DNA of 64,000 nt from a virus (IMGVR_UViG_3300045988_109352); one strand, 5' to 3'. Shown: positions 374 through 31,936, counted from the stretch's first letter. Numbers and translations are program-made. The notes: a model not told the origin generated them from the sequence alone.

Positions 374-509
374 GGCGCTTATATTCAAGTTTACACTTGA
401 ACAACTTGACGTTTCATCGAGCCACTACTTCTTAGGGAGCTTGCGCCCCGGTCGTCCATAGTTGGGTTCTCACCGTCCAATCCCCGATGCGCCATCGGTT
501 GGGTTAATA
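374..509 (-). ncRNA. putative solo omegaRNA (reRNA) scaffold, no adjacent tnpB
   Basis: Near-identical copy of the tnpB-1 3' end. Minus-sense hairpins CCGATG-GCG-CATCGG, GGGGC-GCAA-GCTCC and CAAGT-GTAA-ACTTG. Co-oriented with the surrounding operon. Confidence 0.35.
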
Positions 510-586
510 CTATTTTTTAGGTGTAGCTTGGTTATCGCTACATTAGCATTTATAAAAAGCTAAGTGCCTCTTTGTATATAAGTGCC
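374..586 (-). mobile_element. miniature protein-less derivative of the TnpB-only element family (ends plus omegaRNA-like segment)
   Basis: 374-509 matches 1883-2018 (tnpB-1 3' end plus right end) with 5 mismatches in 136 nt. 510-586 resembles the left ends of the elements at 30616 and 3195. Termini GGCGCTTATATTCAA...CACTT and GGCACTTATATACAA...CACTT are inverted repeats (18/25). Flanked by an 8-bp direct repeat. Confidence 0.75.
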
Positions 587-594
587 ATTTGGTA
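587..594. repeat. 8-bp direct repeat ATTTGGTA, copy 2
   Basis: Identical to 366-373. Confidence 0.85.
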
Positions 595-781
595 TTTCTT
601 CACGTTTAACCCGATTATCTTCACACATTGAGGCAAGCATATCGACCTGCTGTCTGGTGGCTACACAAGTACCCGACTTGTTTTTATTTATGGTAGTAAC
701 TACAAATTCTTCCAATCCTACTTCCTTTGCAGCCGGGAGAAGTCTTTTTAGATACTTCCTACACATCTTTTGTAGCATAGG

Positions 782-982
782 CTATTTGTCTGCTGATTTA
801 TAATCCCAGCCATTTAGTTCATAGCATCGCTTACGGACAACTTCTCTGTCCCAATGCTCAAATATCTTAGTCCCTCCCATGCCGTCCTTTTCTCGCTCAT
901 ATAAAGCCCACTCTCTTCCTCTTGGCTCATAGTAATACTTCGGTTGACTATTTGCCAAGTCCTTGTATTCTTGCTCTTTCAT
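782..982 (-). CDS. hypothetical protein
   Basis: Packed minus-strand gene train; no motif recognised. Confidence 0.5.
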   Translation of the reverse strand: MKEQEYKDLANSQPKYYYEPRGREWALYEREKDGMGGTKIFEHWDREVVRKRCYELNGWDYKSADK

Positions 983-983
983 A

Positions 984-1532
984 TCAATAGTCTAATTTAG
1001 GCATTAGAAGGGCTTCGGATAGAGATAACTCTTTGTCGTAAAATGTAATCTTAATTCCTTTGCTATCATCTTTAGGGAAATGAAATCTTATGCCTCTCCT
1101 TGCATTCAAAGCATCGGCTATCAATTCAATGTTAAGTGGGTCAATAAGTACCTTTTCCGCAAATCCCGGTCTGAATTGACTTATAACTTTGTTATAATTG
1201 GGATATTTACTATCTATATTCGCGAACTTATACTTTATATCCCAATCGTCATATATAGCGTGGAAACCATCTTCTTCAATCTCAATGATAGTATGCTTGA
1301 TGATTTCCTTAAAGTTTTTTGCACTAATTAGTTTACCTTCCAGTAATTCCTTCTCTTCTTCGCTAAAGTTGCAAATCTCATTTAGGCAGGCTTTGATTAA
1401 TATCTTGCCGTTGCTGGCTATTGCATATCCATCTTTGAAATATATGCAATTCATTACTGGTCTAATAGGGTCATTTGCACAAGCTAAATGCAGCTTAATC
1501 CCTTTGTTGAAATTGTGTCTAATCTTCTTCAT
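984..1532 (-). CDS. sliding-clamp (DNA pol III beta)-like protein, short form
   Basis: DPIRPVMNCIYFKDGYAIASNGKILI resembles the clamp RP.L.GV...L..vATDGhRL. KYPNYNKVI resembles clamp FPDY..VIP. The C-terminal LLMPKL resembles clamp vvMPmRL. Only 182 aa. Confidence 0.4.
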   Translation of the reverse strand: MKKIRHNFNKGIKLHLACANDPIRPVMNCIYFKDGYAIASNGKILIKACLNEICNFSEEEKELLEGKLISAKNFKEIIKHTIIEIEEDGFHAIYDDWDIKYKFANIDSKYPNYNKVISQFRPGFAEKVLIDPLNIELIADALNARRGIRFHFPKDDSKGIKITFYDKELSLSEALLMPKLDY

Positions 1533-1858
1533 ATCATTTGGTCTTTTAGTATTATAGCATCCACTTTGGAGTAGACACCCTTGTCTTTGAATTTACGTAT
1601 TCTTTTAAAAATCTTTTGTTCGTTGCACTTCCGGTATGACAGACAAAGCAAGTTGGGAATTTCCTCCCTTTTTATTCTATCATCCCCACATAGAGAAGCC
1701 AGCATATTGACTTGTTCTACCGTGGCTGTGCATCGTCCATTTTCGTTTTCGGTAATAGTCCTTTCGACAAATTCATCAAGACCGATATCTCTCGCTTTCC
1801 GGTACAACTTTTTCAGATACTTTCTGCAAAGCTGCTGTAGTTTGTTATGGCAACTCAT
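1529..1858 (-). CDS. hypothetical protein (intact paralog of the split gene 237..778)
   Basis: ATG at 1858 (MSCHNKLQQLCRKYLKK...) aligns with the start of the paralog. The longer ORF reaching 1897 would begin inside the TnpB-1 right end. Confidence 0.6.
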   Translation of the reverse strand: MSCHNKLQQLCRKYLKKLYRKARDIGLDEFVERTITENENGRCTATVEQVNMLASLCGDDRIKREEIPNLLCLSYRKCNEQKIFKRIRKFKDKGVYSKVDAIILKDQMI

Positions 1859-1882
1859 AATAGTTTCTTTATAATATCTCCA

Positions 1883-2018
1883 GGCGTTTATATCCAAGCT
1901 TACACTTGAACAACTTGACGTTTCATCGAGCCGCTACTTCTTAGGGAGCTTGCGCCCCGGTCGTCCATAGTTGGGTTCTCACCGTCCAATCCCCGATACG
2001 CCATCGGTTGGGTTAATA
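1883..2018 (-). ncRNA. putative omegaRNA (reRNA) scaffold overlapping the tnpB-1 3' end
   Basis: Position expected from the known TnpB architecture. GC-rich hairpins in an AT-rich genome. The sequence is conserved in the protein-less copy at 374-509. Confidence 0.4.
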
Positions 2019-3120
2019 AATTCTGTGCTTGTAGTCCGAAGCGTTTGATGTTTCGGGCTGCAAGTAAATCTCTGTCATTTGTAGTTCCACACTTGGGACA
2101 AGTCCACTTGCGGTCGGAAAGTTTAAGCTCTCTATTTATATATCCGCACTCACACATCTTTGAAGACGGTTCAAAGCGACCTATGCGAATTAAAGTCTTT
2201 CCGTACCATTCACACTTGTATTCAAGCATGGAGAAGAAAGTAGCCCAACCAACAGAACCTATTGAACGTGCAAGCTTGTGATTTTTCATCATGCCGTCAA
2301 TGTTCAAGTCCTCTATGATTATCGCTTGGTTTTCGCGAACGAGCTTTGTACTTACTTTGTGTAAGAAGTCTGTCCGTTGGTTGGTTACTTTCTCGTATTG
2401 TCTTGCTAACTGCTTTCTAAGTCTTTCATGTCTGTTTCCTCCCTTCTTGGATTTACTGAAACGCTTTTGGATTATCTTCAATCGGTCAGTAGCTTTTTCA
2501 AGATATTTAGGGTTTTGAAATACGTCCCCATTTGAACATACTGCAAAGTCCTTTATTCCCACATCTATGCCGATTGTACCCTCATAAGTTATCGGTTCTT
2601 TAGATGGAAGTTCTTTCCCATCCTCTACCAATACACTGACATAGTATTTATCTGTCTTGGTTTTAGATACCGTGACAGACCTTACATCTCCTTCAAACTT
2701 TCTATTCTCAGATAGCTTCACCCATCCGATTTTAGGAAGTTTAATCCGGTTGTTATCCAAGTCTACTTCTACTGAGTTGATAGCCTTATATGCTGCTCTA
2801 CTTTTGTGTTTGGACTTGAATTTAGGAAAGCCTTTCTTCTCACGGAAGAATCTTGTAAACGCGCTGTCCAAGTTCCGGATAGACTGCTGCAAACACTCAT
2901 TGCTCACTTCTTTCAGCCACTCCATGCCTTTCTCCTTCTTCAAGTCGGTAAGCATCTTGCATAGGTCAACCGCATTTATTCGCTTTCCTTCGTTCTGATA
3001 GGCTTCTATTCGCTTTGCCAAAGCCCAATTATAGATAAAGCGTACACTTCCAAAGGACTTCTCAAAGAATATCCTCTGCTCCTTAGTAGGCTTCAATCTA
3101 TATTTATAGGCTTTCAACAT
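1900..3120 (-). CDS. tnpB: RNA-guided endonuclease TnpB (IS605 OrfB type)
   Basis: MLKAYKYRLKPTKEQ N-terminus. RuvC motifs IGIDVG, IIIEDLN and NDRDLLAARNI. Zn ribbon CECG...CPKCG. Confidence 0.9.
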   Translation of the reverse strand: MLKAYKYRLKPTKEQRIFFEKSFGSVRFIYNWALAKRIEAYQNEGKRINAVDLCKMLTDLKKEKGMEWLKEVSNECLQQSIRNLDSAFTRFFREKKGFPKFKSKHKSRAAYKAINSVEVDLDNNRIKLPKIGWVKLSENRKFEGDVRSVTVSKTKTDKYYVSVLVEDGKELPSKEPITYEGTIGIDVGIKDFAVCSNGDVFQNPKYLEKATDRLKIIQKRFSKSKKGGNRHERLRKQLARQYEKVTNQRTDFLHKVSTKLVRENQAIIIEDLNIDGMMKNHKLARSIGSVGWATFFSMLEYKCEWYGKTLIRIGRFEPSSKMCECGYINRELKLSDRKWTCPKCGTTNDRDLLAARNIKRFGLQAQNLLTQPMAYRGLDGENPTMDDRGASSLRSSGSMKRQVVQV

Positions 3121-3141
3121 ATATGCGTCTTTAGTTCAGTA

Positions 3142-3173
3142 CAAAGATAAGATATTATAAATAAAAAAGCAAA
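3142..3173 (-). promoter_or_regulatory. Bacteroidota-type promoter for tnpB-1
   Basis: Minus strand TTTG (3173-3170), 20 nt, then TATCTTTG (3149-3142), about 20 nt upstream of the ATG. Confidence 0.5.
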
Positions 3174-3182
3174 CGTTTTACT

Positions 3183-3632
3183 TTATTTAAGTGTTCTAAT
3201 AAACTGTTGAACACCTAAGAATAGGATAACGAGAATGACTGCTATGTTAGTGTAGCAGATAGTCAGAAACGCGGAGTTCGATGTGAATATTGTATCTAAA
3301 TACTCACGTTGTATTAATACTGCAAATATGTAAAGTACGCCTAATAAGTATTTCCAACAGAAATGTAATGAAATAGCTAATAATAAAAGTAGTATCGCAG
3401 CTATTAAAGTAATCTTAACGTATAAAGTTATAGAGAACGATATTGGAGTAAATAAATAAGCATATCCGTCCATCCCCTCAAAGAAGTCATTATTGTAATA
3501 TGCTATTAACTTTTCTGAATAGTCAATCAAAAGCAATAGACATAATACATAAACAACATATTTAGTAAGCACAATAAGTAGCTTTCTAAATAATGGAGAT
3601 AATGACCATATGTATTTATTTAGAGTATTCAT
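3183..3632 (-). CDS. multi-pass membrane protein
   Basis: Four or so hydrophobic spans. The last codons and the stop lie inside the T1 left end. Confidence 0.6.
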   Translation of the reverse strand: MNTLNKYIWSLSPLFRKLLIVLTKYVVYVLCLLLLIDYSEKLIAYYNNDFFEGMDGYAYLFTPISFSITLYVKITLIAAILLLLLAISLHFCWKYLLGVLYIFAVLIQREYLDTIFTSNSAFLTICYTNIAVILVILFLGVQQFIRTLK

Positions 3633-3838
3633 TTCTTAACTTCAACTTTGATTGTATCGGCTTTAACCGTATCTTTCTTAGTAGTCTTAATCCTAAACCT
3701 AATATCACCTACATTAGTATCATGGTATCTTGGATGAGGATGAAGTTTTGGGTCTACTACTATCGGCATCTTTCTCTTCGTAGTGCCAGACGGAATACTA
3801 TCGTTCTTCGTCTTCACATTCACTTTTATCTTCACCAT
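3629..3838 (-). CDS. hypothetical protein
   Basis: Packed minus-strand train; basic. Confidence 0.4.
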   Translation of the reverse strand: MVKIKVNVKTKNDSIPSGTTKRKMPIVVDPKLHPHPRYHDTNVGDIRFRIKTTKKDTVKADTIKVEVKK

Positions 3839-3983
3839 CTTCTACTTTTATTAAGTGACCTTTTTTATTTCCATAGGCAAAGTGACGGGCTTCGACTTTA
3901 TTCTTAGCTATCATATAATAGACAGCCGAAGTAGTCTTGCCAATTCTCCTTGCGTATTCTTTTACGCTTATCCACTTTTCCAT
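3798..3983 (-). CDS. small HTH DNA-binding protein (excisionase/AlpA-like)
   Basis: WISVKEYARRIGKTTSAVYYMIAKNKV helix-turn-helix pattern. Confidence 0.5.
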   Translation of the reverse strand: MEKWISVKEYARRIGKTTSAVYYMIAKNKVEARHFAYGNKKGHLIKVEDGEDKSECEDEER

Positions 3984-3991
3984 AATGGTTC

Positions 3992-4495
3992 TTATTTTTG
4001 TCCCGTACTACCATATCCGTTAGCACCTCTGTCGGTATCAGAAAGCTCTTCCACTTCCTCCCATTCGATTGGTAAGGTAATACCTATCTTAGCTTGGACT
4101 ATTCTTTCTCCTACCTTATACTTTGGCATAGTAGGCATAACATGATAAAATACTGTTGACATCTCACCACGGTAAAGTTCATCAATAGTTCCCTCACAGT
4201 TGGATAAGACCATACCAGTTTGCCATACGCTGCTTCTTGGGCGACAATCAAGTGACAAATGAAAAGGACACTTGGATAAATCTATAGATGTATTCATCCC
4301 AATGTCTATAGTAGAACCTTTCAATATAGTTTCCCAATCTCTTTCCATTTCTATCGCAATGCCTAATCCATACTTATAAACGTTAGGTGCAATTTCCTCG
4401 CATGAAGTAGCGTATAAGTCCCAGCAAAAGTCAGATGGGTATTTCTTGAAAGGTGAAGGAACTGATTTATCCAACTTCTTAAATTTTATTTTCAT
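3992..4495 (-). CDS. dut: dUTP diphosphatase
   Basis: Motifs DLYA, GTIDELYRGE and C-terminal RGANGYGSTG. ATG at 4495 sits downstream of the promoter boxes. Confidence 0.75.
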   Translation of the reverse strand: MKIKFKKLDKSVPSPFKKYPSDFCWDLYATSCEEIAPNVYKYGLGIAIEMERDWETILKGSTIDIGMNTSIDLSKCPFHLSLDCRPRSSVWQTGMVLSNCEGTIDELYRGEMSTVFYHVMPTMPKYKVGERIVQAKIGITLPIEWEEVEELSDTDRGANGYGSTGQK

Positions 4496-4521
4496 TGTAA
4501 AATTGGTTTTGATTACAGTGA

Positions 4522-4553
4522 CAAAAGTAGCTGAAATTTTGGAAAGTTCCAAA
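4522..4553 (-). promoter_or_regulatory. Bacteroidota-type promoter upstream of dut
   Basis: Minus strand TTTG (4553-4550), 20 nt, then TACTTTTG (4529-4522). The -33 box lies in the palindrome TTTTGGAAAGTTCCAAAA (4537-4554). Confidence 0.5.
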
Positions 4554-4641
4554 AAATAAGGGTCAGAATTGTGTTAAAAGAAAGAGAGAAAGCACAATTG
4601 TTACTCTCTCCCTTTCGACTTAAAATAAACGAGATTATAAA

Positions 4642-5070
4642 CTACAAGTTCACAATATCCACATAGTTAGATTCAACAACTTGTTCAATTCTCCAATCAG
4701 CCATTGAAGCGGACATAGCTTCTTTGACAGTGTTTGTTGCCTCTTCTGTTGTATCAGCTTCAACAATCAACATGCAAGGTGTCTTCTTCTCGTCGCCCTC
4801 GTCGTTTAGAGTAATGTAGTTGAGCTTCACTTTAAAGAGCTTTTTGTCCTCCTTGTCCTTATCTCCCAAAAATTCTTGGAAGTTTGTTCGTCCAACTGCA
4901 AGAACTGAAAACTCTTCTGCTTGGTAGATAGACAGTTCTTCATTCATCAGCTTTTCGCATTCCGTGCAACTCATAGCGTTTACAAGATACTTTTCTGTTA
5001 CTCTCTTTTGCTTGCCTCTTTCGTTGATTTTAACGTAAGAAACTTTTGCTTCCATTAATTGTACTAACAT
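4642..5070 (-). CDS. hypothetical protein (possibly DUF4494-like)
   Basis: 142 aa. My recollection of the family pattern KV.Y.K..E.G..K.VTE.YLV.A is uncertain. Confidence 0.5.
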   Translation of the reverse strand: MLVQLMEAKVSYVKINERGKQKRVTEKYLVNAMSCTECEKLMNEELSIYQAEEFSVLAVGRTNFQEFLGDKDKEDKKLFKVKLNYITLNDEGDEKKTPCMLIVEADTTEEATNTVKEAMSASMADWRIEQVVESNYVDIVNL

Positions 5071-5089
5071 GATTAATTCTTTTAATTGA

Positions 5090-5332: not shown

Positions 5333-5781
5333 TTCTGAAAGTTCAGTTTTACCAAATCCATGCTTTTCTCCTTATACCAATTTGGAACATAATTACAGAT
5401 AGCAAACTCCTTTTCTTTCTTTTCATATATATTTTCTAAGAATTGCTTGGTAGTCATTCTGTAGAAATCACAGTTAGGTGCTTTAAATACTTCTTTACCA
5501 TCTATTTCTTCTGGATTGACAGCAATAAATCTTGCATGGTCTTGAAATAAATAGCATTGTGGATTATAGGCACAACCAAAATCATAGACAGTATATTCTT
5601 TAGGTATGATTTTTGATAGATAGTAATATGTTTCCATAAAGCCTATAAAATCTGTTCCTATAGCACAATACTCCTGCTTGAAAACTCTATCTTTTTCTTC
5701 CTTTGGGATAAGAGATAGTACATAGTTTGTAATTTCTTGTTCGTTCATATCAAAAAGGTAATTCCTGCAATTCGCTACCAA
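5308..5781 (-). CDS. hypothetical protein
   Basis: 157-aa ORF overlapping both neighbours. Confidence 0.55.
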   Translation of the reverse strand: MVANCRNYLFDMNEQEITNYVLSLIPKEEKDRVFKQEYCAIGTDFIGFMETYYYLSKIIPKEYTVYDFGCAYNPQCYLFQDHARFIAVNPEEIDGKEVFKAPNCDFYRMTTKQFLENIYEKKEKEFAICNYVPNWYKEKSMDLVKLNFQNCYTFYPS

Positions 5782-7852
5782 ACGGTAATTGATTGTTCAT
5801 ATTGTCATATATGTCTTGTAAATCGGTAACATCAGCTGTGGGTATCGTTTCAAATGTCAACTGTGAAGGTTGTTCCTGCCATCCATAGACGATGTTCTCC
5901 GATATTTCGTTCTTTAGTCTGCGGGATTCGACTTCGTAGTACATCCCTACCAATAAGTCTATCACTCCCATGCTTCGGTTCTTGCAAACTTCAATTACAG
6001 AGTTATACTTTAGATATGGGAGAACTTTGTCCTTACCGAAAAACTCCCCTGCCCTCTGCTCAAAGTCTTTCCCTATTCGATGTATGATGAATACAGAATC
6101 AGCCAAGTTAGTTAAATCTGCTGTGCCGGATATGCTTTCTTTTCGTAGAAATATACCTTCTTTTCTTGGATGGCATACTAACAGCACATGCACATTCTTA
6201 GCTTTAGCATATTCTTTTAAGTCATTGATGAACTTAGTTTGCTGGGTATATTTATCACCTTCATAGTTGTCAATCTGCAATGCCATCAAGTTATCAAGAA
6301 CAATAAGCTGTACACCTTCTTTGTCTACAAGCTCTTTTACATCAGCAAACAGTTGTTGCCATTTACTTCCATAATTATTGTTATAAAGGAATAGTTTGCC
6401 TTCTAACCAATTACTTATCTGATTGGAAATATTTTTAGGAGCATAGTAGTAGTTTTCAAAGCCCTCCCTTTTGCATACATAATTTTTACCAGCAGCGATT
6501 TGATTTATCCAGCTTTGAAATCTAAAGTCTTGCAATTCTCCCGACCATATTCCTACTTTATATCCTCTTTGTATAGCATTCAGAGCAACACAATCTATCC
6601 AACTACTTTTTCCCGCACCAGAGCCGCCAGACAATACAGTTACATCTCCAAGCAACAGTCCGATGATTTTTTTGTCAAGTTCTTTATATCCCGTAGGAAT
6701 AGCTACAAACTTACTCATATCCACATACTGTACATCAGTCATAGCCAGCCATTTCTTTCCCTTAGCGGAATCCTCCTTCTTTGGCACAAAAGGTTCTTTC
6801 TTTTGGGAAGAGTAGTATTGCATCTTATGCTCGTGCCTTTGGTATTCCTTGTGGTCGTAAGCATCCGGCTCAAACTTCAACCGAAAGTCCTTCCACGTAT
6901 ATTGAGAACAACTTGAATGCAGGCACTTAAAGCCAAGTCCTCCATTAGACATTTCAAAGATTGCTGAATCCGGAGCACGGTGTGAACTATTGAATGGGCA
7001 TTCGTCAAGTATGTACTTTGTAAACGATGATGTCCTTACAATGTTTCTTACTGAGATGTGGTGTTTATTCAGAAATGCTTCTAAGTCAAACTTCTCATTG
7101 CTGTAGTAGTTACTCTTGCTCGGTTGTTCCGGCTTCGGGAGCATAGCAGCAACTTTGGCAAAGTATTCGTTTGGAGTTATTTTAACTTCATCTGGTATTC
7201 TTAGTATCTTACTTTCCCTTTGAGGACGTTTCTTGGTATTACTTCCCTTTCTACTAAATGTTCCGTAAAGTTTACAAATGCGGCTTGAATTGAACGTACT
7301 ACAATCAATCTCCACATTCGGATTAGAGAATAGCATATCAAGAACTTGCAGGAACTCTTTACAGATTGTAGTATTCTCATTGCTATTCTTCATGGCTATT
7401 TTGTACAACAGATGGAAACCATTACCACTATCACATACTACTGGTTTTTCAAAGCCTTCATCCCGTAGGAACTTAAATACATTGTTGACTACTTCTTTCG
7501 CCATCTCCTTCTCTTCATCAGTTGAGTTTGTGTCTGATGGCTTCTTTGTGTCTATGTCTATCAATATCCAATCTCTTCCAACAATGTCATTATCAGAAGT
7601 TGTTGACTTAGGTTTGGTAACAATCCTATCATGCTGCTCTCTGTCATAACATGCTGGATTGATAGCGTTCAATGTGAAGTAGATGTTACAGTTATCGTAC
7701 TTCCTAATTTCGTTGAGCAGGGTATCAACATCAGTAAAGTAGCCGGAATAGGTTCTTTTATAAGCATTGTCTACTATACGAACTTCAACCAACTCTTCAC
7801 CCGATTTGAAGGTATCATACCATTGTCTAATAGTTATCTCATTCATTTTCAT
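5750..7852 (-). CDS. DNA primase (AEP/prim-pol type) fused to a P-loop replicative helicase
   Basis: N-terminal IYFTLN, DIDTKKP and SGNGFHLLY (AEP motifs). Cys/His cluster CPFNSSH...CLHSSC. Walker A GGSGAGKSS and Walker B LIVLDNL. Confidence 0.75.
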   Translation of the reverse strand: MKMNEITIRQWYDTFKSGEELVEVRIVDNAYKRTYSGYFTDVDTLLNEIRKYDNCNIYFTLNAINPACYDREQHDRIVTKPKSTTSDNDIVGRDWILIDIDTKKPSDTNSTDEEKEMAKEVVNNVFKFLRDEGFEKPVVCDSGNGFHLLYKIAMKNSNENTTICKEFLQVLDMLFSNPNVEIDCSTFNSSRICKLYGTFSRKGSNTKKRPQRESKILRIPDEVKITPNEYFAKVAAMLPKPEQPSKSNYYSNEKFDLEAFLNKHHISVRNIVRTSSFTKYILDECPFNSSHRAPDSAIFEMSNGGLGFKCLHSSCSQYTWKDFRLKFEPDAYDHKEYQRHEHKMQYYSSQKKEPFVPKKEDSAKGKKWLAMTDVQYVDMSKFVAIPTGYKELDKKIIGLLLGDVTVLSGGSGAGKSSWIDCVALNAIQRGYKVGIWSGELQDFRFQSWINQIAAGKNYVCKREGFENYYYAPKNISNQISNWLEGKLFLYNNNYGSKWQQLFADVKELVDKEGVQLIVLDNLMALQIDNYEGDKYTQQTKFINDLKEYAKAKNVHVLLVCHPRKEGIFLRKESISGTADLTNLADSVFIIHRIGKDFEQRAGEFFGKDKVLPYLKYNSVIEVCKNRSMGVIDLLVGMYYEVESRRLKNEISENIVYGWQEQPSQLTFETIPTADVTDLQDIYDNMNNQLPFGSELQELPF

Positions 7853-19589: not shown

Positions 19590-20015
19590 TTAATCATCTA
19601 TCTCAAATAGGTTCTTCTTTATCTGCCAATACTCTTTGACTTCCGGCACGCTGATAACTCCCTTGTTGCTATTAATGTCGTACACTTGAAAGTACAGAAT
19701 TGTCTTCTTGCTTTTGTTGGCATATACTTGCACGAAAAGTCCAGTAAACAACTCAAACTCACCTTGCATGAATTGTTCCGCTTTGAATGTGCCTTGTATC
19801 TTATGTCCGTCTTGGATTATAGTACAAGTCATATCCCGGTTGAACTTCATTCTAACCAAGTTTGGCGGTGTACTTACATTGTCGTTGTGGTCTTGTACAT
19901 ACTGTACAGTCCATGTACCATACAAATAGTTAAGCTGGCTCTTCCAATCTGTTTGCGCCTGCATACTTGCCATCAGTGAAAGCAAGCCAATCAATGTCAT
20001 TACTAACTTCTTCAT
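19590..20015 (-). CDS. secreted protein with signal peptide (lipocalin-like size)
   Basis: ATG at 20015. MKKLVMTLIGLLSLMASMQAQ signal sequence. Confidence 0.55.
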   Translation of the reverse strand: MKKLVMTLIGLLSLMASMQAQTDWKSQLNYLYGTWTVQYVQDHNDNVSTPPNLVRMKFNRDMTCTIIQDGHKIQGTFKAEQFMQGEFELFTGLFVQVYANKSKKTILYFQVYDINSNKGVISVPEVKEYWQIKKNLFEIDD

Positions 20016-20272
20016 TGTTTTATCAGTTTTTCGATTATTGTTCTTAGTTCCTTCTCCCAATCCTTGTTCCCGTGCATAGGATAACTTAGCTGATGCCAAT
20101 TATGGTAGTCAAATAGCTTCATCCGGCATGGGTAGTAATCAAACAGCTTCTTCTCATTGTGGAATACTCTGATATGCTTTCCCTCATACTCTCCGATATT
20201 ACTCGATTTAAGTTTATAGGCTGCCAAAATTTCGTTGAACTTCTCCATTGGAGTAAATATACTCTTCGCCAT
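20012..20272 (-). CDS. hypothetical protein
   Basis: ATGA overlap with the downstream gene. Confidence 0.45.
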   Translation of the reverse strand: MAKSIFTPMEKFNEILAAYKLKSSNIGEYEGKHIRVFHNEKKLFDYYPCRMKLFDYHNWHQLSYPMHGNKDWEKELRTIIEKLIKQ

Positions 20273-20275
20273 AAT

Positions 20276-20578
20276 TCAGTCCTCCTTTTCGGGAGTATAA
20301 CCTCCCATGAGTCTATAGTTAGGTATCAGCTTGTCGATGCTCTTAATCTCAAATCGTGTATAAGTCACACAATTCGGATATATCTTACAAAGTCCGTTGA
20401 TTATATACTTGTCATTGAAGTACATTTCAAGCTTCATGTGTACCTCGGATGCGGAATATTGCCTTTTGTCAATAAAGAATATCCCGTCTATTTCACTTGA
20501 AAATCCTCTGTTTGTAACTCTGAACAAGTCGCGAAGTTCTTGTATCACGTCTTGTATGCTAATCGGTTGTTTTTCCAT
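20276..20578 (-). CDS. hypothetical protein
   Basis: The track start at 20584 is TTG; the first ATG is at 20578. Confidence 0.5.
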   Translation of the reverse strand: MEKQPISIQDVIQELRDLFRVTNRGFSSEIDGIFFIDKRQYSASEVHMKLEMYFNDKYIINGLCKIYPNCVTYTRFEIKSIDKLIPNYRLMGGYTPEKED

Positions 20579-21654: not shown

Positions 21655-22470
21655 TTATAGGTTATTATATTCTTTGTATTTAGAAATTGAATTGAACGTA
21701 GCTTGTACGCGGCTACTAATATACTGATAAAAATTAGCATTCGTAAAGTCAATGCCGATAAACAATTTGTTGTTGTTTCTATTGGCTTCCTGCATGAGTT
21801 CCTTTATTTCCGCTTTGTGACACTGGGTGAGAACAAAACTTGTACGGTATTTAGTCCAATTCAAAAAGAACAGTTCTTCATCTGTAGAATTTTCATTCAG
21901 CATAGGTATTACTTTTCGTAGTATTCTACAAAAACAAGCGAACTCAGCACTTTCTACTACTTTTCTGTTTCGCGTTCTTGCACTTGCTCTACTTGCTTGC
22001 TTCTTACTTTCTTCGTCAATTCGATAATTGCTATTAGCTGTGCCGGATAATATGCCGCGTGCCTTGTTTGCTGCTAACGCATCTTTTGTACGTTTGCTAA
22101 TTAGTTCGCGTTCGTATTGTGCAACGGATGCAAAGATACCTAATACCATAGTATTTACTACTGGAAGGTCACAAAAATATATATCTATGCCCGTATTTAC
22201 TACATGAAAAACAAACTCAGCATCTCTTGAAAGCCTATCCAATTTAGCCACTACAAGGGTGCAACTATTAGCTTTGCAATACTCTATAGCTTTCCACAAC
22301 TCCACACGGGAACAGTCTTTTCCCGAAGCCACATCTACAAACTTACCACAAATAATTCCACCTTTGCTATTAATATAGTCTATACAAGTCTTTTCTTGGG
22401 CTGACAACCCTAAACCGCTATCACCTTGTTTATTCGTTGATACACGAAGGTAGTAAACATATTTATCCAT
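21655..22470 (-). CDS. small serine recombinase (resolvase/invertase family)
   Basis: YLRVSTNKQ catalytic Ser region, VVAKLDRLSRD and QYERELISKRTKDAL. The C-terminal ~110 aa have no HTH I can recognise. Confidence 0.8.
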   Translation of the reverse strand: MDKYVYYLRVSTNKQGDSGLGLSAQEKTCIDYINSKGGIICGKFVDVASGKDCSRVELWKAIEYCKANSCTLVVAKLDRLSRDAEFVFHVVNTGIDIYFCDLPVVNTMVLGIFASVAQYERELISKRTKDALAANKARGILSGTANSNYRIDEESKKQASRASARTRNRKVVESAEFACFCRILRKVIPMLNENSTDEELFFLNWTKYRTSFVLTQCHKAEIKELMQEANRNNNKLFIGIDFTNANFYQYISSRVQATFNSISKYKEYNNL

Positions 22471-25695: not shown

Positions 25696-25715
25696 ATCTT
25701 TGTCCTCCCGTGACT

Positions 25716-25931: not shown

Positions 25932-25934
25932 AGT

Positions 25935-26303: not shown

Positions 26304-26316
26304 ATCATTGCATTTT

Positions 26317-26779: not shown

Positions 26780-27330
26780 AACTCTATTTTTTAAGTGATT
26801 GATTTTCAATTTTCTGTACTCTGCATTTCCACGGGCTTGTAACCGTCTTAGGCTGCATTACAGATGAAGTACGGGAAAATCAGATGGCTATCAGATAACA
26901 GCTATATATTATAGCCATATATCCATAGGCTTATATCCTATTTCCCGTTCCTTCTTCATATCATTATCTTAGATATAGTTAAGTAGTGTATAGGTAACGA
27001 CTTCCTAAATACTTGCTGCAATTACGTTTATTGCACTTGCTTAATACCATATCAATATCTCACAGCGTCTACCCTCGCATGTAATGTTATCCAGTGTAAC
27101 TATTCATGCGTCAACGCTTATTCAGTATGTAAGTCTTTCAAATATCGCTTTGTCTTCGTTGAACTCCTTTGTTCCCTTTCGACATTACAAAGATACAGCT
27201 TTATTTTGATATATATGTTAATTGAACGTTAAAAATATATCAAACTATCGTATTTTAACTCTCATTTACAAATAAAGTGTGTAATTACATAAATATTTAC
27301 ACAAAACAAGCGATAATAAAGGAAAACAAC

Positions 27331-27370
27331 GCCAAAAAAAACAAGTAGTTACTAAAACAAAAAAACTACT
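27331..27370 (-). terminator. intrinsic terminator (minus strand) with no upstream ORF
   Basis: Stem AGTAGTT/AACTACT (27344-50 / 27364-70), followed on the minus strand by TGTTTTTTTTGG. Confidence 0.45.
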
Positions 27371-27616
27371 GTTCCAGTTCCTATCCTTTCCGACTTCATG
27401 CAAACACGTACAGACACACACATAATATATTATATATATTAATTATATATATATAGTGCTTCGCACACTGGCAGCGTTAATAACCATTCGTTTAAAAACA
27501 AGTTTTTAAACATTATTCTAAAGTATATCAATTAATAATATCTATATTAATATTATATATATAATATAATTATAATAATATATTATTTAGTTTATATATA
27601 TATATAATTATATCTA

Positions 27617-27700
27617 TGTTATATTGTATATTATTGTTTTTATGTGTTATATTGATTTATATAATTATATCTGATTTGTGTTATATTGAATTATATAAAG
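27617..27700. repeat. iteron-like direct repeats in the AT-rich core
   Basis: TGTTATATTG at 27617, 27645 and 27679. Extended units GTGTTATATTGA(T/A)TTATATAA at 27644 and 27678 match 21/22. Confidence 0.5.
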
Positions 27701-28149
27701 CCTAATTATTTAAATAATCACGCATGAGCACACACGCACATGCACGTAAAGCAAAAACATCATGCAATATTCTTTGCAAACGGATGTTTGGTTTAAATAT
27801 TCAGCCCGTTTAAGCCTTCGTAATTGTTTGAGGCATGCAACACTTCATCCGTGCTTCGTTCGTTCTTCAGTCCCCCTACAAACAAGCAATAAGGGCAAAT
27901 AATCCCTCATAGGGGTATGGGGGGGGGTAAACCGTAGCCGGAAACGGTGGGGTACACATAGCCTAACTCCGAAAAAAATAAAAAAAATAAATTTAGTCCG
28001 TGGCTAAACAATTGATTATCATCCGCTATGTAAATTGCCGTATTGGGGATAAATGTTGTAAGTGTCTGATATTCAGCCGTTGTCGTGATTCCGACTTCGG
28101 GAAGTATTGTCCGTGGGTGTAGTGTATTTGCCTACTGATGATTTTAATT

Positions 28150-28170
28150 CCCCCGAAATCGGGGGTTTTA
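28150..28170 (+). terminator. intrinsic terminator (plus strand) inside the ORF-free hub
   Basis: CCCCCG-AAAT-CGGGGG followed by TTTTA. The opposite strand lacks a T tract. Confidence 0.45.
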
Positions 28171-28303
28171 GAAACCTTGTATGTTGGTTTGGCTGGTAGT
28201 ATGCTTGATTTGTATTTATGCAACGTTTATTTGCGTATTTTACCCACGAACCTAAGTATTTTATCATCTTACCCAAATAAAATTAAAATTTTCGCTTCTA
28301 TAA

Positions 28304-28334
28304 TTTGGATTTTAGAATTTAGTTAGTACATTTG
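28304..28334 (+). promoter_or_regulatory. Bacteroidota-type promoter of the rightward operon
   Basis: TTTG (28304-07), 19 nt, then TACATTTG (28327-34). AAAGGAG lies before the ATG at 28384. Confidence 0.55.
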
Positions 28335-28383
28335 CGGTGTTGTTTAACTAAAAACTTGAATGATATGAAAGGAGATTTTATTT

Positions 28384-29193
28384 ATGAAGCGTAGTGAGCA
28401 TTTCAACGTTGCTGCTGGCAAGTGGTTGAATGGTTATCCCTTGTCGGTTAATGGGCATAAGTACGTTATATCTGGCGTTGATTCGGATAATAGCCTTGTC
28501 TTGCATTGTTTAGATGCTAAGGATATTGTTTGTGAATATTCGGATTTGATGATAGGCTCTTCCCACATCTTTGTGAACCATTGCGACCATGTGATTTGTG
28601 AGGCGAGGCGGGTGTTTGTTGACGAGCAATCCCATCATGAGCTTTATGTTGTGAACAAAGGTGACGAATGGCGTTCTTATTGGGTTGAAGATTCCTATGT
28701 CATAGGTGCTAATTGCTGTACTATTCGTTCTATTTCAGACTTTCTCCGCGAGAAGAATAAGTTTTTCTGTGGTGACATTGTGGTTAAGTACGATTGCGGT
28801 GTTCCCACTTACTACTTTGTGGATGCTTTTACAGATGTTTCGGGTGTTTTCACGGTTGTGTTCAGCTACTTGGACGGTGATGGTAAAATTGCTTATTGCT
28901 ATTCCGACAAGGGAATGTATCGTGTTCTTGAGGATGTTGCGTTTGAGCATTGGGCTTCTCGTGGATTCAAGTACGACGAGGAGAACAATACGTTGTGTCC
29001 CATCTCTTATGAGTTAACTGATAATTCCTATGTTTTTTACTGTAGTGACGAGCCAGTTTCGGTTCTTGCTAACTGGAAGATAGGTACTTATGGCTTTGCT
29101 AAGGATAAATTTCCCTTCATTGTACCTTTCCACAAGTTTAATCCCGACAATATTGGTGAAAGTTTGCAGCACAATGTTGTAAAACAGCAATAA
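28384..29193 (+). CDS. hypothetical protein
   Basis: 269-aa ORF, first gene after the promoter. Confidence 0.6.
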   Translation: MKRSEHFNVAAGKWLNGYPLSVNGHKYVISGVDSDNSLVLHCLDAKDIVCEYSDLMIGSSHIFVNHCDHVICEARRVFVDEQSHHELYVVNKGDEWRSYWVEDSYVIGANCCTIRSISDFLREKNKFFCGDIVVKYDCGVPTYYFVDAFTDVSGVFTVVFSYLDGDGKIAYCYSDKGMYRVLEDVAFEHWASRGFKYDEENNTLCPISYELTDNSYVFYCSDEPVSVLANWKIGTYGFAKDKFPFIVPFHKFNPDNIGESLQHNVVKQQ

Positions 29194-29257
29194 AAGTTTA
29201 CATTTTAGAGAAATTTTTCCTATATTTGCATTGAGATAATATTAAAATCGTTAACAA

Positions 29258-29746
29258 ATGACATATTTATATCTGTTATCTTTATTAACACTTGTTGCAT
29301 ACATTGGTTATGCTTTGAAGGTATGCGAACTGCCTGCATCGCTTTCAGATACCTACTACATTTTGAAGGAGAAGAGCCGTCCTTCTTGGCTGTTTCAGCT
29401 TGCTATGGTTGTCTGTCCTATGCTTCTTGTTCCCGTATGGCTTGAATTGTCTTCTGACAGTGTTCAGTTTCTTTCTTTCTTGGCTTGTGGCGGTCTGATG
29501 TTTGTCGGTACAGCGCCTTTGTTCAAGGAGGAGTTTCAGAGGAAGGTTCACTTCGGTGGGACTATAGTAGCTGGATTGGGCACTACCTTGTGGCTGTTGT
29601 TCTCTGGTATGTGGTATATCCCTTCCGCTTTCTTCTTTGTGTCGGGCATTGTCATGCTGTTCAAGAAAAAGTGGCTGTTCTGGCTGGAAATGGCGTTGTT
29701 TGCGAGTGCTTATACTGGATTGTTAGTTAAAATGATGTTTGGATGA
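29258..29746 (+). CDS. multi-pass membrane protein
   Basis: Five or so hydrophobic spans. Confidence 0.6.
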   Translation: MTYLYLLSLLTLVAYIGYALKVCELPASLSDTYYILKEKSRPSWLFQLAMVVCPMLLVPVWLELSSDSVQFLSFLACGGLMFVGTAPLFKEEFQRKVHFGGTIVAGLGTTLWLLFSGMWYIPSAFFFVSGIVMLFKKKWLFWLEMALFASAYTGLLVKMMFG

Positions 29747-30018
29747 TGGAAAGAAAACTGTTTGATGGATGGGGTCTGTTTATAACCAAAGACTTGTCCT
29801 ATGTAGGCTTTTTCACGGATGATAGAGTTTGCTTGATAGATATAGAGGCTGATGGAATACAAATCATTGAGAAATCCGATTTCAAGGAGGACTATTTACT
29901 TTCCCCTACCGAGGAGGATATGGTTAAGTTCCGTGCTACTTTAGAAAAAGCTGGAAGTGGGTTTAGAGATAAGATTTTGGAAATAATGAAAAAAAATAGT
30001 TATGAATTTGAGTTTTAA
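29743..30018 (+). CDS. hypothetical protein
   Basis: Overlapping start and stop. Confidence 0.5.
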   Translation: MMERKLFDGWGLFITKDLSYVGFFTDDRVCLIDIEADGIQIIEKSDFKEDYLLSPTEEDMVKFRATLEKAGSGFRDKILEIMKKNSYEFEF

Positions 30019-30247
30019 ACAAGCTATAGACCTTCACCAGTGCCTTCGCTACATTGAAGCTTGCCAAAAGGCTATATACGGTAACGACAATACGAGTGAC
30101 AACATAGAGGTCGGGGACGTATCTGTGACGTTTCACTTTGACGATGGCGAAATCTTTTTGGATAGCTTGATTGTTTCCGGTTCGGAGTGCAAGAAGGGGC
30201 GCATTGATGTTGAAGACTATTTAGTTGAAGACTATTTAAGAGAATGA
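30002..30247 (+). CDS. hypothetical protein
   Basis: Packed plus train. Confidence 0.45.
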   Translation: MNLSFKQAIDLHQCLRYIEACQKAIYGNDNTSDNIEVGDVSVTFHFDDGEIFLDSLIVSGSECKKGRIDVEDYLVEDYLRE

Positions 30248-30248
30248 G

Positions 30249-30614
30249 ATGGAGTTATATTTAGAACCTATTTACCGTGACCGGAATTGCAAGGGGCAGT
30301 TCAACAAGGGTCACAGATTGAGATTTGGAGGGCGACCTTGTTCCGAGGAAACTAAGAAGAAGCTGTCGGAGATTATGAAAAAGAGGATAGCTGACGGTTC
30401 TACCAAGATGCCTCATTTTCAGAAGGCTGTAATAGTCATTAAGGACGGTCGGATTGTGGGTCACTACCCTTCCGCTACGGAGATGGCTCGCAGGCTGGGA
30501 ATTACCAAGTCGATTATTATCCGTGTTTGCTTGGGTATTCGGAAAAGCTATCGTGGATGCAATCTTTTTTACGAGTGTGATTCAGATAAATGGATGAAAC
30601 TAATTAAAGAATGA
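30249..30614 (+). CDS. homing-endonuclease-type DNA-binding protein without a nuclease domain (NUMOD3 plus NUMOD1-like HTH)
   Basis: GHRLRFGGRPCSEETKKKLSE (NUMOD3-like) and SATEMARRLGITKSIIIRVCLG (NUMOD1/IENR1-like). No GIY-YIG or HNH motif. Confidence 0.5.
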   Translation: MELYLEPIYRDRNCKGQFNKGHRLRFGGRPCSEETKKKLSEIMKKRIADGSTKMPHFQKAVIVIKDGRIVGHYPSATEMARRLGITKSIIIRVCLGIRKSYRGCNLFYECDSDKWMKLIKE

Positions 30615-30615
30615 G
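30608..30615. repeat. 8-bp direct repeat AGAATGAG, copy 1, flanking T2
   Basis: Identical octamer at 31937-31944. Confidence 0.85.
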
Positions 30616-31936
30616 GGTAACTATATAGCACTTTGCACTAAAAATTATATAAATAAATAGGAAATTTAAAATATTCTATTTATATTTGCGACATGTATTT
30701 AACGGAGCAACATATAATAACAGTTAATGACAAGAGGTACAAGGATTTAGACCGGATTTGTTTCTTATCCAAGAACTTGTATAATGCGGCTTTATATATC
30801 ATAAAGCAGGAGTTTCTTGTTTCCGGGAAATGGATAAGGTCTACAGAACTTAACAAAAAGATGGTTGCAGAAAACAACGTTGATTTTAGGGCTATGAGTG
30901 GTTCTTCTTCCCAGCAAATTTTAATGGCTTTGGATAAGAATTTGAAATCCTATTTTTCTGCCATTAAAGCATGGAAAAGGGATAACAAGAAATTTACTGG
31001 ATGCCCTAAATTCCCGAAATACAAGCATAAAACAAAAGGAAGAAATATATTTACTTATTCTTATGTACAATTTAAACATAGAGGGGAGTACATTTATTTC
31101 CCGAAGAAAGAAGGTCTGCAACCGTTGAAAACAAGATGCAAGGAAGGAACAGTTAAGCAAATAAGGTTTGTACCGAAAGCAGATTGTTATGTAATAGAAC
31201 TGGTATATGAATCAGAAGTAAAGGAAAAGCTACCGGATAACAATAAGTATATGTCTATTGATTTGGGAGTTAACAACCTTGCTTCTATTGTAACTAATAC
31301 GAGTAACAAGGCTGTTTTGGTAGACGGAAAGAAATTGAAGTCCATCAACCAGTATTACAATAAGAAAAAGGCTAAAGTTCAATCACAATTAAAGAAAACA
31401 AATGGAAAGGAAAATTCGAGACGGTTAATGAACCTTACAAGAAAAAGAAACAATAAGGTCAAGGATTATTTGCATAAGGCAAGCAAGGAAATTGTAAGCA
31501 TGTGTTTGAAAGACAATATAACTACATTGATAGTAGGACATAATGACGGATGGAAACAGGAAGTGGATATGGGTAAAAGAAACAATCAGAACTTTGTTTC
31601 AATTCCGTTTGAAACGTTCATATCAATGTTAAGGTACAAATCTGAAAGACAAGGACTAAGATTTGTTGAAATAAACGAATCTCACACGTCAAAATGCAGT
31701 TCTTTAGATTTAGAAGAAGTAAAACATCATGATAGTTATATTGGAAAGAGAGTAAAAAGAGGTCTTTTCAGAACAAAGAACGGGATTTTACTCAATGCAG
31801 ATATAAACGGAGCCTACAACATCATGAGAAAAGTAAAGGGGGATGCAGCAATGCCACCCTATAGAGGGTTTGGGTATAACCCAGTTAAGAAATTTATTAA
31901 CAAATAGATACAAGTGTAAACTTGTATATAATTACC
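30616..31936 (+). mobile_element. TnpB-only element T2 with imperfect terminal inverted repeats and an 8-bp flanking duplication
   Basis: GGTAACTATATAGCACTTTGCACT (30616-39) against the reverse complement of 31913-36, GGTAATTATATACAAGTTTACACT, matches 19/24. Deleting it restores a compact stop/start junction. Confidence 0.8.
30693..31907 (+). CDS. tnpB: TnpB-family RNA-guided endonuclease, variant subtype
   Basis: IDLGVNN (RuvC-I), YLHKASKEIV, INESHTSK and NADINGAYNIMRKV (RuvC-III). The canonical IxEDLN position reads LIVGHNDG, and there are no CxxC Zn-ribbon pairs. Confidence 0.8.
   Translation: MYLTEQHIITVNDKRYKDLDRICFLSKNLYNAALYIIKQEFLVSGKWIRSTELNKKMVAENNVDFRAMSGSSSQQILMALDKNLKSYFSAIKAWKRDNKKFTGCPKFPKYKHKTKGRNIFTYSYVQFKHRGEYIYFPKKEGLQPLKTRCKEGTVKQIRFVPKADCYVIELVYESEVKEKLPDNNKYMSIDLGVNNLASIVTNTSNKAVLVDGKKLKSINQYYNKKKAKVQSQLKKTNGKENSRRLMNLTRKRNNKVKDYLHKASKEIVSMCLKDNITTLIVGHNDGWKQEVDMGKRNNQNFVSIPFETFISMLRYKSERQGLRFVEINESHTSKCSSLDLEEVKHHDSYIGKRVKRGLFRTKNGILLNADINGAYNIMRKVKGDAAMPPYRGFGYNPVKKFINK

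Follow-up and report, generated by a model that had tools for sequence, protein, structure and literature searches.

Background

The success of TnpB nucleases is thought to be tied to the scarless Y1 and serine transposases of the IS605 and IS607 families, and links of prokaryotic TnpB proteins to cut-and-paste DDE transposons are described as rare. Here we analyse a probable case of such a link in a 64,000-nucleotide (nt) stretch of viral DNA, IMGVR_UViG_3300045988_109352 (hereafter the window), from a gut Bacteroides phage. It carries three elements with common ends, namely T1 and T2, each with a tnpB gene, and a short element that we call the mini. We consider it quite probable that all three are non-autonomous members of the IS1595 group, mobilised in trans and plausibly spread by TnpB homing.

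The IS1595 family, relatives of the eukaryotic Merlin elements, resembles the window elements in its repeats that start with GG, its 8-bp AT-rich target site duplication and its frequent passenger genes, as well as in having autonomous copies with a zinc-ribbon transposase (DDE_Tnp_IS1595) of about 305 amino acids (aa) at the left end. The ends of the ISfinder subgroup ISNwi1, which we take to be 'ggnnatTAT', fit GGTAATTATAT. The 8-bp duplication is a hallmark of IS1595 and Merlin (PMC10045372). Unlike the family, the window elements lack a transposase and their passenger is an RNA-guided nuclease with its presumed scaffold, or the scaffold alone; moreover they were found only in phage contigs and not in 185,579 representative cellular genomes.

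Six DDE-transposase-associated TnpB branches with inverted terminal repeats, DDE-1 to DDE-6, have been described (Altae-Tran et al. 2023, PMC10691335). As in the window, the tnpB 3' end in these branches lies at most 250 bp from the transposon end, and solo TnpBs have the ends of transposase-bearing copies, suggesting trans mobilisation. They differ in that here TnpBs of what would be two major clades are found on one end family, guide-only minis exist, and tnpB and transposase were never seen in one element. The partners named for these branches are IS630 (text of PMC10691335) and ISL2, IS630 and IS1031 (a later review, PMC13565253), which make duplications of 2-3 bp as against 8 bp here. IS1595 is not mentioned in the main text of PMC10691335, and a literature search for a link between TnpB and IS1595 returned none.

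The IS200/IS605 elements (IS1341-type) in which TnpB and its omegaRNA bring about homing ('peel-paste-cut-copy') are another close system. The TnpB of T1 is typical of these, and its presumed scaffold also overlaps the 3' end of the gene and extends to the element end; a guide taken from the right flank and a short motif resembling a target-adjacent motif (TAM) by the left end are presumed likenesses. The window elements, in contrast, have neither a Y1 TnpA nor subterminal-hairpin ends, show inverted repeats and 8-bp duplications, and have their candidate TAM set off from the left end by the duplication, which makes up the first 8 nt of the target. Fanzor proteins on DDE transposons (PMC3627910) are similar in that a TnpB-type nuclease is the cargo of cut-and-paste transposons with repeats and duplications, but they belong to eukaryotic or giant-virus elements whereas the proteins described here are bacterial-type TnpBs in tailed Bacteroides phages. 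Finally, the mini shows all the features of miniature inverted-repeat transposable elements (MITEs), being short (213 bp) and non-coding, with repeats, duplications, many copies and an end-matched autonomous partner that would supply transposase in trans. Its interior, unlike theirs, is the conserved structured RNA block of T1 and not a random deletion remnant, and the mini may depend on a second helper, TnpB.

Terminal inverted repeats and target site duplications

Over long blocks the window shares 93-99% identity with the Bacteroides phage C3_41T2LP, which infects B. uniformis. Comparison with this phage sets the boundaries of the mini and T2, whose parts are listed below by window position (handles of the form L127 denote comparison sequences).

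366-373: target site duplication beside the right end of the mini, ATTTGGTA on the + strand; a single copy in the empty allele
374-586, - strand: mini element, 213 bp, MITE-like, IS1595-type, non-autonomous; boundaries from the empty site in C3_41T2LP
374-399, + strand: right terminal inverted repeat of the mini, GGCGCTTATATTCAAGTTTACACTTG read inward
561-586, - strand: left terminal inverted repeat of the mini, GGCACTTATATACAAAGAGGCACTTA; 23/26 to the transposase-proximal repeat of L127 and L098
587-594: target site duplication beside the left end of the mini, preceded on the - strand by AAA (candidate TAM)
30608-30615: left target site duplication of T2, AGAATGAG, preceded by TAA (candidate TAM) and holding the stop codon of the upstream gene
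30616-31936, + strand: T2 element, 1321 bp, with a derived-clade tnpB and IS1595-type inverted repeats; boundaries from the empty site in C3_41T2LP
30616-30641, + strand: left terminal inverted repeat of T2, GGTAACTATATAGCACTTTGCACTAA; 21/26 to the transposase-proximal repeat of L245
31911-31936, - strand: right terminal inverted repeat of T2, GGTAATTATATACAAGTTTACACTTG read inward; 22/26 to the right repeat of L245 and 22/26 to that of the mini
31937-31944: right target site duplication of T2, AGAATGAG, the first 8 nt of the presumed guide

A first-pass annotation of this DNA had reported that the three elements share their tips. The end sequences that it quoted were all found where it had placed them, the element lengths (213, 1313 and 1321 bp for the mini, T1 and T2) are correct and the shared tips are real, but it overlooked that the tips belong to inverted repeats flanked by duplications, which identify the mechanism. 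They are the outer part of imperfect terminal inverted repeats of about 26 bp (GGYRMYTATATNC..N..RCACT), of the type GGnnnyTATATAC..(A/G)CACT in the mini, T1 and T2, and the left ends are inverted, imperfect copies of the right ends. Read inward, the repeats are GGCACTTATATACAAAGAGGCACTT and GGCGCTTATATTCAAGTTTACACTT in the mini and GGTAACTATATAGCACTTTGCACT and GGTAATTATATACAAGTTTACACT in T2. The window has three occurrences of the right-tip consensus CAAGTGTAARCTTGNATATAA, against none in 100 dinucleotide-preserving shuffles, while the outer motif GGYRMYTATATW occurs four times against 0.44 expected, at exactly the four intact ends. Identity between ends is 18-19/26 within an element and 16-22/26 between elements; random 26-mers drawn from the window share 7/26 on average and reach 16/26 in 0.03% of pairs. 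The resemblance is thus far above the level of the shuffled controls against which the first-pass annotation had wanted it measured.

Both the mini (366-373 and 587-594) and T2 (30608-30615 and 31937-31944) lie between exact 8-bp direct repeats. Since both sites are empty in C3_41T2LP, at 95-97% identity, with a single copy of the 8-mer (...CAATATTTGGTATTTCTTC... for the mini, L001 1375-1382; ...TTAAAGAATGAGATTATGAAC... for T2), these repeats are target site duplications. The converse case is also seen: C3_41T2LP has minis where the window sites are empty, as with TTGATATG at 44320-44327. The sites are therefore polymorphic between near-identical phages. The mini site is empty as well in L098, a sibling phage with 95-96% identity over window positions 1-1882. 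T2 was inserted between two phage genes without damage to either, because its duplication restores the upstream stop codon as well as the start of the gene downstream.

Exact-pattern scans of IMG/VR, one for each end type, returned at least 119 and at least 120 stretches, and among the matches listed nearly all are on phage contigs of 40-160 kb. Among the matches listed in the first scan, 26 ends have a partner repeat together with a duplication that is perfect (8/8), and these represent about 12 targets. The elements fall into size classes of 212-223 bp (minis), 584 bp (non-TnpB cargo), 1317-1347 bp (several TnpB subtypes) and 2160-3735 bp, so that a single family of ends surrounds four or more TnpB subtypes as well as omegaRNA-only minis and a non-TnpB cargo. 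Perfect duplications border the mini, T2 and many relatives, and are missing from the T1 of the window. In the 185,579 representative bacterial and archaeal genomes the T1-type repeat gave seven scattered single matches in unrelated taxa, where about eight are expected by chance (estimated from the information content of the repeat pattern). As this is the chance level, the end family looks phage-restricted.

The 584-bp element (L068, 0-based 601-1185) has family repeats and a perfect duplication, TTAGTTAT, and lacks tnpB; its cargo is a 166-aa repeat-rich open reading frame (ORF) with GNAxV repeats, and about 60 nt of a T1-like right end are retained. Nested family elements were seen in L215 (0-based, reverse complement, about 9583) together with a 183-bp element; there the duplication and left end of one copy abut the right end of another, in the order TATATAATCACC, CTAATTTA, GGTGAC...

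Autonomous IS1595 elements with matching ends

We found no IS1595 transposase gene in the window, T1, T2 and the mini included (best tblastn E-value 0.59), but elements elsewhere with matching ends do encode one, and for this reason the window elements were filed as non-autonomous IS1595 derivatives. One of these partners (L152, the same as L245) is 3071 bp long, has the duplication TATGAAAA and no tnpB, and encodes a 305-aa protein recognised by the NCBIfam IS1595 transposase model (215.8 bits, cut-off 75) and by the Pfam domain DDE_Tnp_IS1595 (PF12762, 1e-48). Its repeats match the left repeat of MT835500, a T2-like TnpB element, at 25/26 positions and those of the window T2 at 21-22/26. The second partner, present in L127 and L098, is 2840 bp long (duplication TATTGATA in L127), likewise without tnpB, and its 306-aa IS1595-type transposase was assigned by homology only, being 51-52% identical (tblastn) to the transposase of L247, a relative of the L245 protein. 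The transposase-proximal repeat of this partner, GGCACTTATATACAAAGTGACACTTG, agrees with the left repeat at 25/26 positions in 220-bp minis and at 23/26 in the window mini; overall, the ends of the mini and T1 match the L127/L098 element at 20-25/26. In L098 the autonomous element lies about 137 bp past the point that matches the right end of T1, and three minis are found in the same sequence. Remoter IS1595 elements, with 43% transposase identity, also show GGnnnyTATATAC ends, 8-bp duplications and passenger genes.

Transposase and tnpB never occur together in the elements examined; in TnpB elements a promoter-proximal tnpB takes the place of the transposase between the repeats. The first-pass annotation had suggested that the termini are conserved for a common trans-acting machinery while the cargo is exchangeable, and that a database search with the ends, independent of tnpB, would bear on this. 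Such a search turned up the transposase-only elements with near-identical repeats, and the suggestion is now well supported by the IS1595 repeats, the transposase-only partners (25/26) and the varied cargo. The mini, T1 and T2 were thus probably moved in trans by the IS1595 transposase of sibling phages, to judge from their ends.

Other IS1595-type sequences were noticed. The 2992-bp record L127 (CANQHK010000122.1) consists nearly entirely of the autonomous element and is binned in an 'uncultured Bacilli' metagenome-assembled genome, a doubtful label; the element is 98% identical to a copy in a Bacteroides-phage-like viral contig. A transposase cassette with 55% identity to the L247 transposase was seen in L164, L175, L197, L198, L222, L228, L237, L241, L244, L146 and L185. 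It has a good right repeat, GGTAATTATATACTACTTTRCACTATC, and a conserved left boundary, ..CATTAGATTTTAAAG, without recognisable left repeat, which in many contexts abuts CAT, the start codon of an opposite-strand gene. It comes in two size classes, with the right end 1164 or about 2030 bp from the ATG, and neither a second repeat nor a duplication was found for such one-ended cassettes. A protein search with the transposase among annotated phage records gave no named relative.

The T1 and T2 elements and their TnpB proteins

The TnpB elements comprise the following further features.

1883-3195, - strand: T1 element, 1313 bp, with a typical-clade tnpB and the omegaRNA block; no duplication here
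1883-1908, + strand: right terminal inverted repeat of T1, intact, GGCGTTTATATCCAAGCTTACACTTG read inward; the tnpB stop codon lies within it
1883-2017, - strand: 3' structured block of T1, about 135 nt, presumed omegaRNA scaffold; overlaps the last ~39 codons of tnpB
1900-3120, - strand: T1 tnpB, 406 aa, with RuvC-II IIIEDLN, zinc ribbon and RuvC-III DRDLL
3181-3195, - strand: decayed left repeat of T1, AACACTTAAATAAAG, as judged against L081 and L122
30693-31907, + strand: T2 tnpB, 404 aa, with LIVGHNDG, INESHTSK and RuvC-III NADIN, without zinc ribbon

The motifs quoted in the first-pass annotation are present, IIIEDLN and the zinc ribbon in T1, and LIVGHNDG and INESHTSK without ribbon cysteines in T2. 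The two proteins differ strongly, as it had said, with 25% identity, and the possibility that they might be close relatives was not borne out. The T1 protein has the Pfam domains HTH_OrfB, OrfB_IS605 and TNB, scores 442 bits with the NCBIfam IS200_TnpB model (cut-off 425) and 280 bits against ISDra2 TnpB structures, and its canonical motifs align to the ISDra2 TnpB family. The T2 protein has OrfB_IS605 and TNB in Pfam and is recognised in NCBIfam by the generic TnpB model guided_TnpB only. In its alignment to Protein Data Bank structures there is a gap at the canonical RuvC-II glutamate, and a candidate relocated glutamate is found in INESHTSK; relocation of this residue has been described for rearranged TnpB clades (PMC10691335). 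The RuvC-III motif is of the DRDxN form in T1 and of the NADxN form in T2, and since DRDxN marks the 'typical' and NADxN the 'derived' TnpB clade (PMC10691335), the two proteins would belong to different major clades. Ratios of non-synonymous to synonymous substitution (dN/dS) are 0.05-0.13 for T1 tnpB and 0.06-0.08 for T2 tnpB, and all full-length tnpB copies are uninterrupted; both genes are under strong purifying selection. Relatives of T2 that are 96% identical are found at other sites with other 8-bp duplications. The left ends hold a motif, TATCTTTG in T1 and TATATTTG in T2, matching what we assume to be the Bacteroides -7 promoter box (TAnnTTTG).

The left end of T1 had been taken as intact, which is not the case, as it is a decayed repeat. 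In L081 and L122, which have T1 at the same insertion point, this end reads AACACTTATATACAAAGAGATACTTAAATAAAG; compared with these, the window copy has AA for the terminal GG and has lost 18 bp between two ACTTA repeats. The decayed repeat now provides the last codons and the stop of a flanking ORF (3183-3632). In L101 a relative of T1 is intact, with 1331 bp, both repeats (left end GGCAGTTATATACAAAGTAACACTT) and the duplication TTATAATA. Because its left repeat is damaged, the T1 of the window is probably no longer transposable, while its TnpB and presumed omegaRNA are still encoded. No clean empty site for T1 was found; in C3_41T2LP homology ends at 1843 and is taken up again at 3185, the DNA in between being unrelated. 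Among sibling phages the right flank of T1 varies, and in L079 it is the flank of the mini; T1 and the minis share about 135 bp in the same orientation. These flank differences suggest recombination between T1 and minis, or adjacent deletions.

Beside the right end of T1 a series of nested junctions was observed in sibling phages (L034, L079, L081/L122), at window positions of about 990, about 1710, 1882 or 373, and in L079 T1 is bounded by the flanks of two different mini sites. C3_41T2LP encodes a third TnpB subtype (49867-51118, 392 aa, annotated 'endonuclease (Transposase)') with the ends GACAATTATATAGG.. and ..AAATAAGTGCC; the window has unrelated DNA at this place (19833-20300). Sequences resembling T2-derived minis proved to be isolated remnants of T2-type right ends, joined to a gene end: in L074, L084, L087, L092 and L109 about 130 nt of a T2-type right end are joined to the end of a conserved phage gene.

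The mini and the presumed omegaRNA

The mini consists of a left inverted repeat, a spacer of about 60 nt with a small hairpin, the T1-type 3' block and a right inverted repeat. That T1 and the mini share a GC-rich block which T2 lacks had been noted before, and we could verify both parts: the last 135 nt of T1 and the mini are identical at 130/135 positions, with 56% GC compared with 36.5% for the window, and T2 has only the terminal ~21 nt in common. Copies of the mini (212-223 bp) with perfect 8-bp duplications are present at no fewer than nine other sites in viral contigs. The window mini splits a small ORF (560-778 with 1-373, - strand) that is intact, at 106 aa, in C3_41T2LP.

Comparison of 15 variants of the T1/mini 3' block gave a consensus fold in which 98.3% of cells are paired. 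The comparison was confined to T1-type sequences, since in a joint alignment with the T1-like subtype of 58-60% identity the middle of the RNA was displaced. Compensatory changes were found in four pairs, a number reached by 2 of 500 shuffles; examples are AU, CG and GC alternating in one hairpin and GC changed to UA in two others. The covariation score was 0.156; shuffles gave 0.113 (0/500) and slid controls no more than 0.05. A small hairpin, CAAG-TGTAAR-CTTG, lies within the right tip, directly before the presumed guide, which for T1 would run from 1882 downward. The block is presumed to be an omegaRNA scaffold that extends through the right repeat to the element tip. An Rfam scan of the whole window gave no match.

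A paralogue of the ORF split by the mini lies about 1 kb away (1529-1897, - strand). C3_41T2LP (L123/L124) holds four T1-type minis, at record positions of about 11204, 29211-29429, about 64590 and about 70258. Directly beyond the left end of a C3_41T2LP mini there is a solo end-like 13-mer, CTATATAATTGCC (L001 1781-1806), which may be a remnant of a second element.

A flank motif and its possible bearing on homing

The trinucleotide just 5' of the left duplication depends on the type of TnpB. For T1 and the minis it is AAA at 11 of 12 distinct sites (binomial p ~1e-15, given an AAA frequency of 0.035) and for T2-type elements TAA at 6/7 (p ~2e-9), the seventh being CAA; a third, T2-like subtype (40-44% identity) has TTA at 4/5 sites (p ~2e-6). 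Adenine occupies positions -1, -2 and -3 at 10/10, 10/10 and 9/10 sites, falling to about 50% further out, and no mirror motif follows the right duplication. None of the five transposase-only elements shows AAA, TAA or TTA, their trinucleotides being AAG, GCG, ATT, CTC and GAA. T1-like TnpBs located between T2-type repeats mostly have AAA, though these copies are without duplications. Should the right flank serve as guide, an empty allele would consist of motif, duplication and right flank in that order, which puts the motif at the very place required of a TAM. We regard this TnpB-type-specific trinucleotide as a possible TAM.

On these grounds the following course of events can be proposed. 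An IS1595 transposase from a co-resident or co-infecting phage would bind the repeats and move the elements. The 3' block would act as omegaRNA scaffold, transcribed across the right repeat, so that the guide would consist of the 8-bp duplication and the next ~8-12 nt. In the empty allele the TAM, the duplication and the right flank would form an uninterrupted target, and TnpB may cut it in sister or co-infecting genomes, after which the Exo/RecT/SSB system of the phage would copy the element into the cut allele, which amounts to homing. The minis would use the TnpB of T1 in trans. The motifs AAA (T1 and minis), TAA (T2) and TTA (third subtype), taken as TAMs, would be enriched because only TAM-adjacent insertions can home.

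The first-pass annotation had also pointed to a recombination set in this phage. RecT and SSB are indeed encoded in the window, and an exonuclease and a resolvase are annotated in a sibling phage. Empty alleles with intact motif and target are present in the culturable sibling C3_41T2LP, at about 1375-1382 of L001 and about 1894-1901 of L002. TnpB-driven homing, by cutting of empty alleles and recombinational repair, is a plausible reading of this arrangement.

An IS605 element and other genes of the window

The window also holds a TnpB element outside the family.

44327-46085: canonical IS200/IS605-type element, not of the family; boundaries from synteny with C3_41T2LP
44348-45685, - strand: tnpB of the IS605 element, 445-aa ORF with a likely start inward near 45550; Pfam TnpB domains
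45632-46036, + strand: Y1 tnpA of the IS605 element, divergent from its tnpB; Pfam Y1_Tnp, 1.6e-34

Its tnpB product is 38% identical to that of T1. The right end of this element is a hairpin (CCCACGAATCTTTAGTTCGTGGG and TAGTTCAC), and it has neither a GG..TATAT repeat nor a duplication. One phage thus holds TnpB in two transposon architectures, and the IS605 element is a plausible source of the captured TnpB modules. C3_41T2LP has different DNA in this stretch, with a mini and a portion of a tail-fibre chaperone gene.

A 271-aa serine recombinase (21655-22470, - strand), called 'integrase' in the plaque-forming isolate C3_41T2LP, has an N-terminal resolvase catalytic domain, a position that we take to be unlike that in IS607 TnpA. 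This protein and the Y1 TnpA were considered as movers of the elements and rejected, as neither chemistry makes 8-bp duplications. IS6/IS26, ISL3 and IS1, which we assumed to be candidates by their GG ends and 8-bp duplications, were dropped because the end-matched elements encode IS1595 transposases.

Two further genes deserve mention. The product of a 700-aa ORF (5750-7852, - strand) is named 'DNA directed DNA polymerase' in C3_41T2LP, whereas Pfam shows only a DnaB-like helicase C-terminal/AAA domain, and a gene for a PAPS-reductase-domain protein (33458-34363, + strand) adjoins the SSB gene.

Alternative explanations

Several observations weigh against trans-mobilised IS1595 derivatives that home by TnpB. 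The T1 of the window lacks a duplication and its left repeat is decayed; many relatives also have no matching duplications, and for both reasons recombination among copies is seen to blur the picture. Few transposase-bearing copies have two clean ends, and the group of IS1595 transposase cassettes with a single recognisable repeat is larger. C3_41T2LP has its four T1-type minis yet no T1 tnpB. Support for the RNA structure is modest, given that the sequences are closely related and that the structure comes from the very alignment on which it was assessed; folded singly, the T1 3' block does not surpass shuffles (z = 0.23). In related contigs, the T2 site is filled in 1 and empty in 29, and the mini site filled in 4 and empty in 31, which means that the insertions are young or that the drive is weak or conditional. 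Finally, subtype-specific transposases might prefer their targets asymmetrically, which would account for the flank motif.

This last point leads to the view that IS1595 moves the elements but TnpB is a selected passenger, which cuts competing phages or host DNA or has a regulatory part, and that the motif is a preference of the transposase. We hold this to be rather unlikely. IS1595-family elements in this material do often carry unrelated passengers (methylase-like, lipoprotein-like and zinc-ribbon proteins), and the rarity of filled alleles would agree with it. As repeat and TnpB subtypes mostly go together, and transposase-only sites number five, the two explanations of the motif are confounded; among these sites L127 (GAA|T) is near the T1 motif, while L245 (ATT|T) misfits that of T2. 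Yet a symmetric DDE complex is not expected to yield a motif so one-sided and sharp in position (A in 100, 100 and 90% at -1, -2 and -3), placed exactly where the TAM would be if the guide is the right flank. Moreover the T1-like TnpBs between T2-type repeats mostly keep the T1-type AAA, and the minis have kept hardly more than the RNA block, which is what selection on the guide RNA would predict.

The remaining alternatives concern the ends themselves. The first-pass annotation had named a common omegaRNA 3' stem, used by both TnpBs, as a possible origin of the shared tips, and the small hairpin before the presumed guide, the consensus fold in which the last 4 nt of the element pair with an internal GG(U/C)G, and a subtype that keeps the tip hairpin only through G-U pairs (CUGG..CUGG) all fit such a stem. 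We nevertheless find this very unlikely, because the tip sequence is also present, inverted, at left ends outside the RNA and at both ends of transposase-only elements without tnpB, the boundaries are marked by exact 8-bp duplications, and the subtype CCATTTTACACTAA has no tip hairpin; the RNA may include the repeat, which still does not explain the repeat. A further possibility is an ordinary IS200/IS605 or IS607 origin of the elements, with a TnpA as the mover, either the Y1 protein (45632-46036) or the serine recombinase (21655-22470). It seems extremely unlikely to us, even though the T1 TnpB passes the NCBI IS200/IS605 TnpB model and the window has genes for both enzymes. Terminal inverted repeats and target duplications are both lacking in IS200/IS605 and IS607 elements (PMC13565253, PMC6188088), so these architectures are excluded by the inverted repeats and 8-bp duplications of T2 and the mini. 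The end-matched partners carry IS1595 transposases and not a Y1 (HUH) TnpA, the right end of the window's own IS605 element is of another, hairpin type, and the serine recombinase, whose gene lies outside the elements, works by a chemistry that leaves no duplication. To mere chance similarity in AT-rich DNA, which the TATATA core of the ends might bring to mind, we give practically no credence in view of the shuffle and random-pair comparisons above and of the hundreds of end copies in other phage contigs.

Implications

Beyond the account of trans-mobilised, TnpB-homing IS1595 derivatives that we favour, we tentatively suggest, with less than even confidence, a phage-restricted selfish system of three parts, in which IS1595 repeats captured TnpB-omegaRNA modules of at least two major clades, guide-only MITEs arose, and one phage genome supplies the transposase needed for transposition and another the TnpB needed for super-Mendelian spread by homing. 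The minis would then be free-riding guide cassettes, each directing cleavage of its own empty site, and the flank motif would be a population-genetic trace that RNA-guided homing has left on DDE insertions which are otherwise unselective.

Several features appear to be new, namely an IS1595 partner that makes 8-bp duplications, the confinement to phages, the end family with two TnpB clades, the omegaRNA-only MITEs and the TnpB-type-specific motif next to the duplication. The window offers a seemingly active, copy-rich case of DDE-borne TnpB in virulent-type gut phages. If the flank motifs are TAMs, the insertion landscape would be direct evidence of RNA-guided homing in phage populations and a direct computational read-out of TAMs. 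In that case the system would also be a tractable model, with the host B. uniformis MB20-41 and the phage C3_41T2LP, which has the empty sites, both in culture, and it would provide compact TnpBs whose TAMs are simple and A-rich, together with a predicted omegaRNA. As a warning, phage tnpB genes should not be annotated as IS200/IS605 by default. There is also a parallel to eukaryotes, where Fanzors ride DDE transposons and Merlin is the relative of IS1595.

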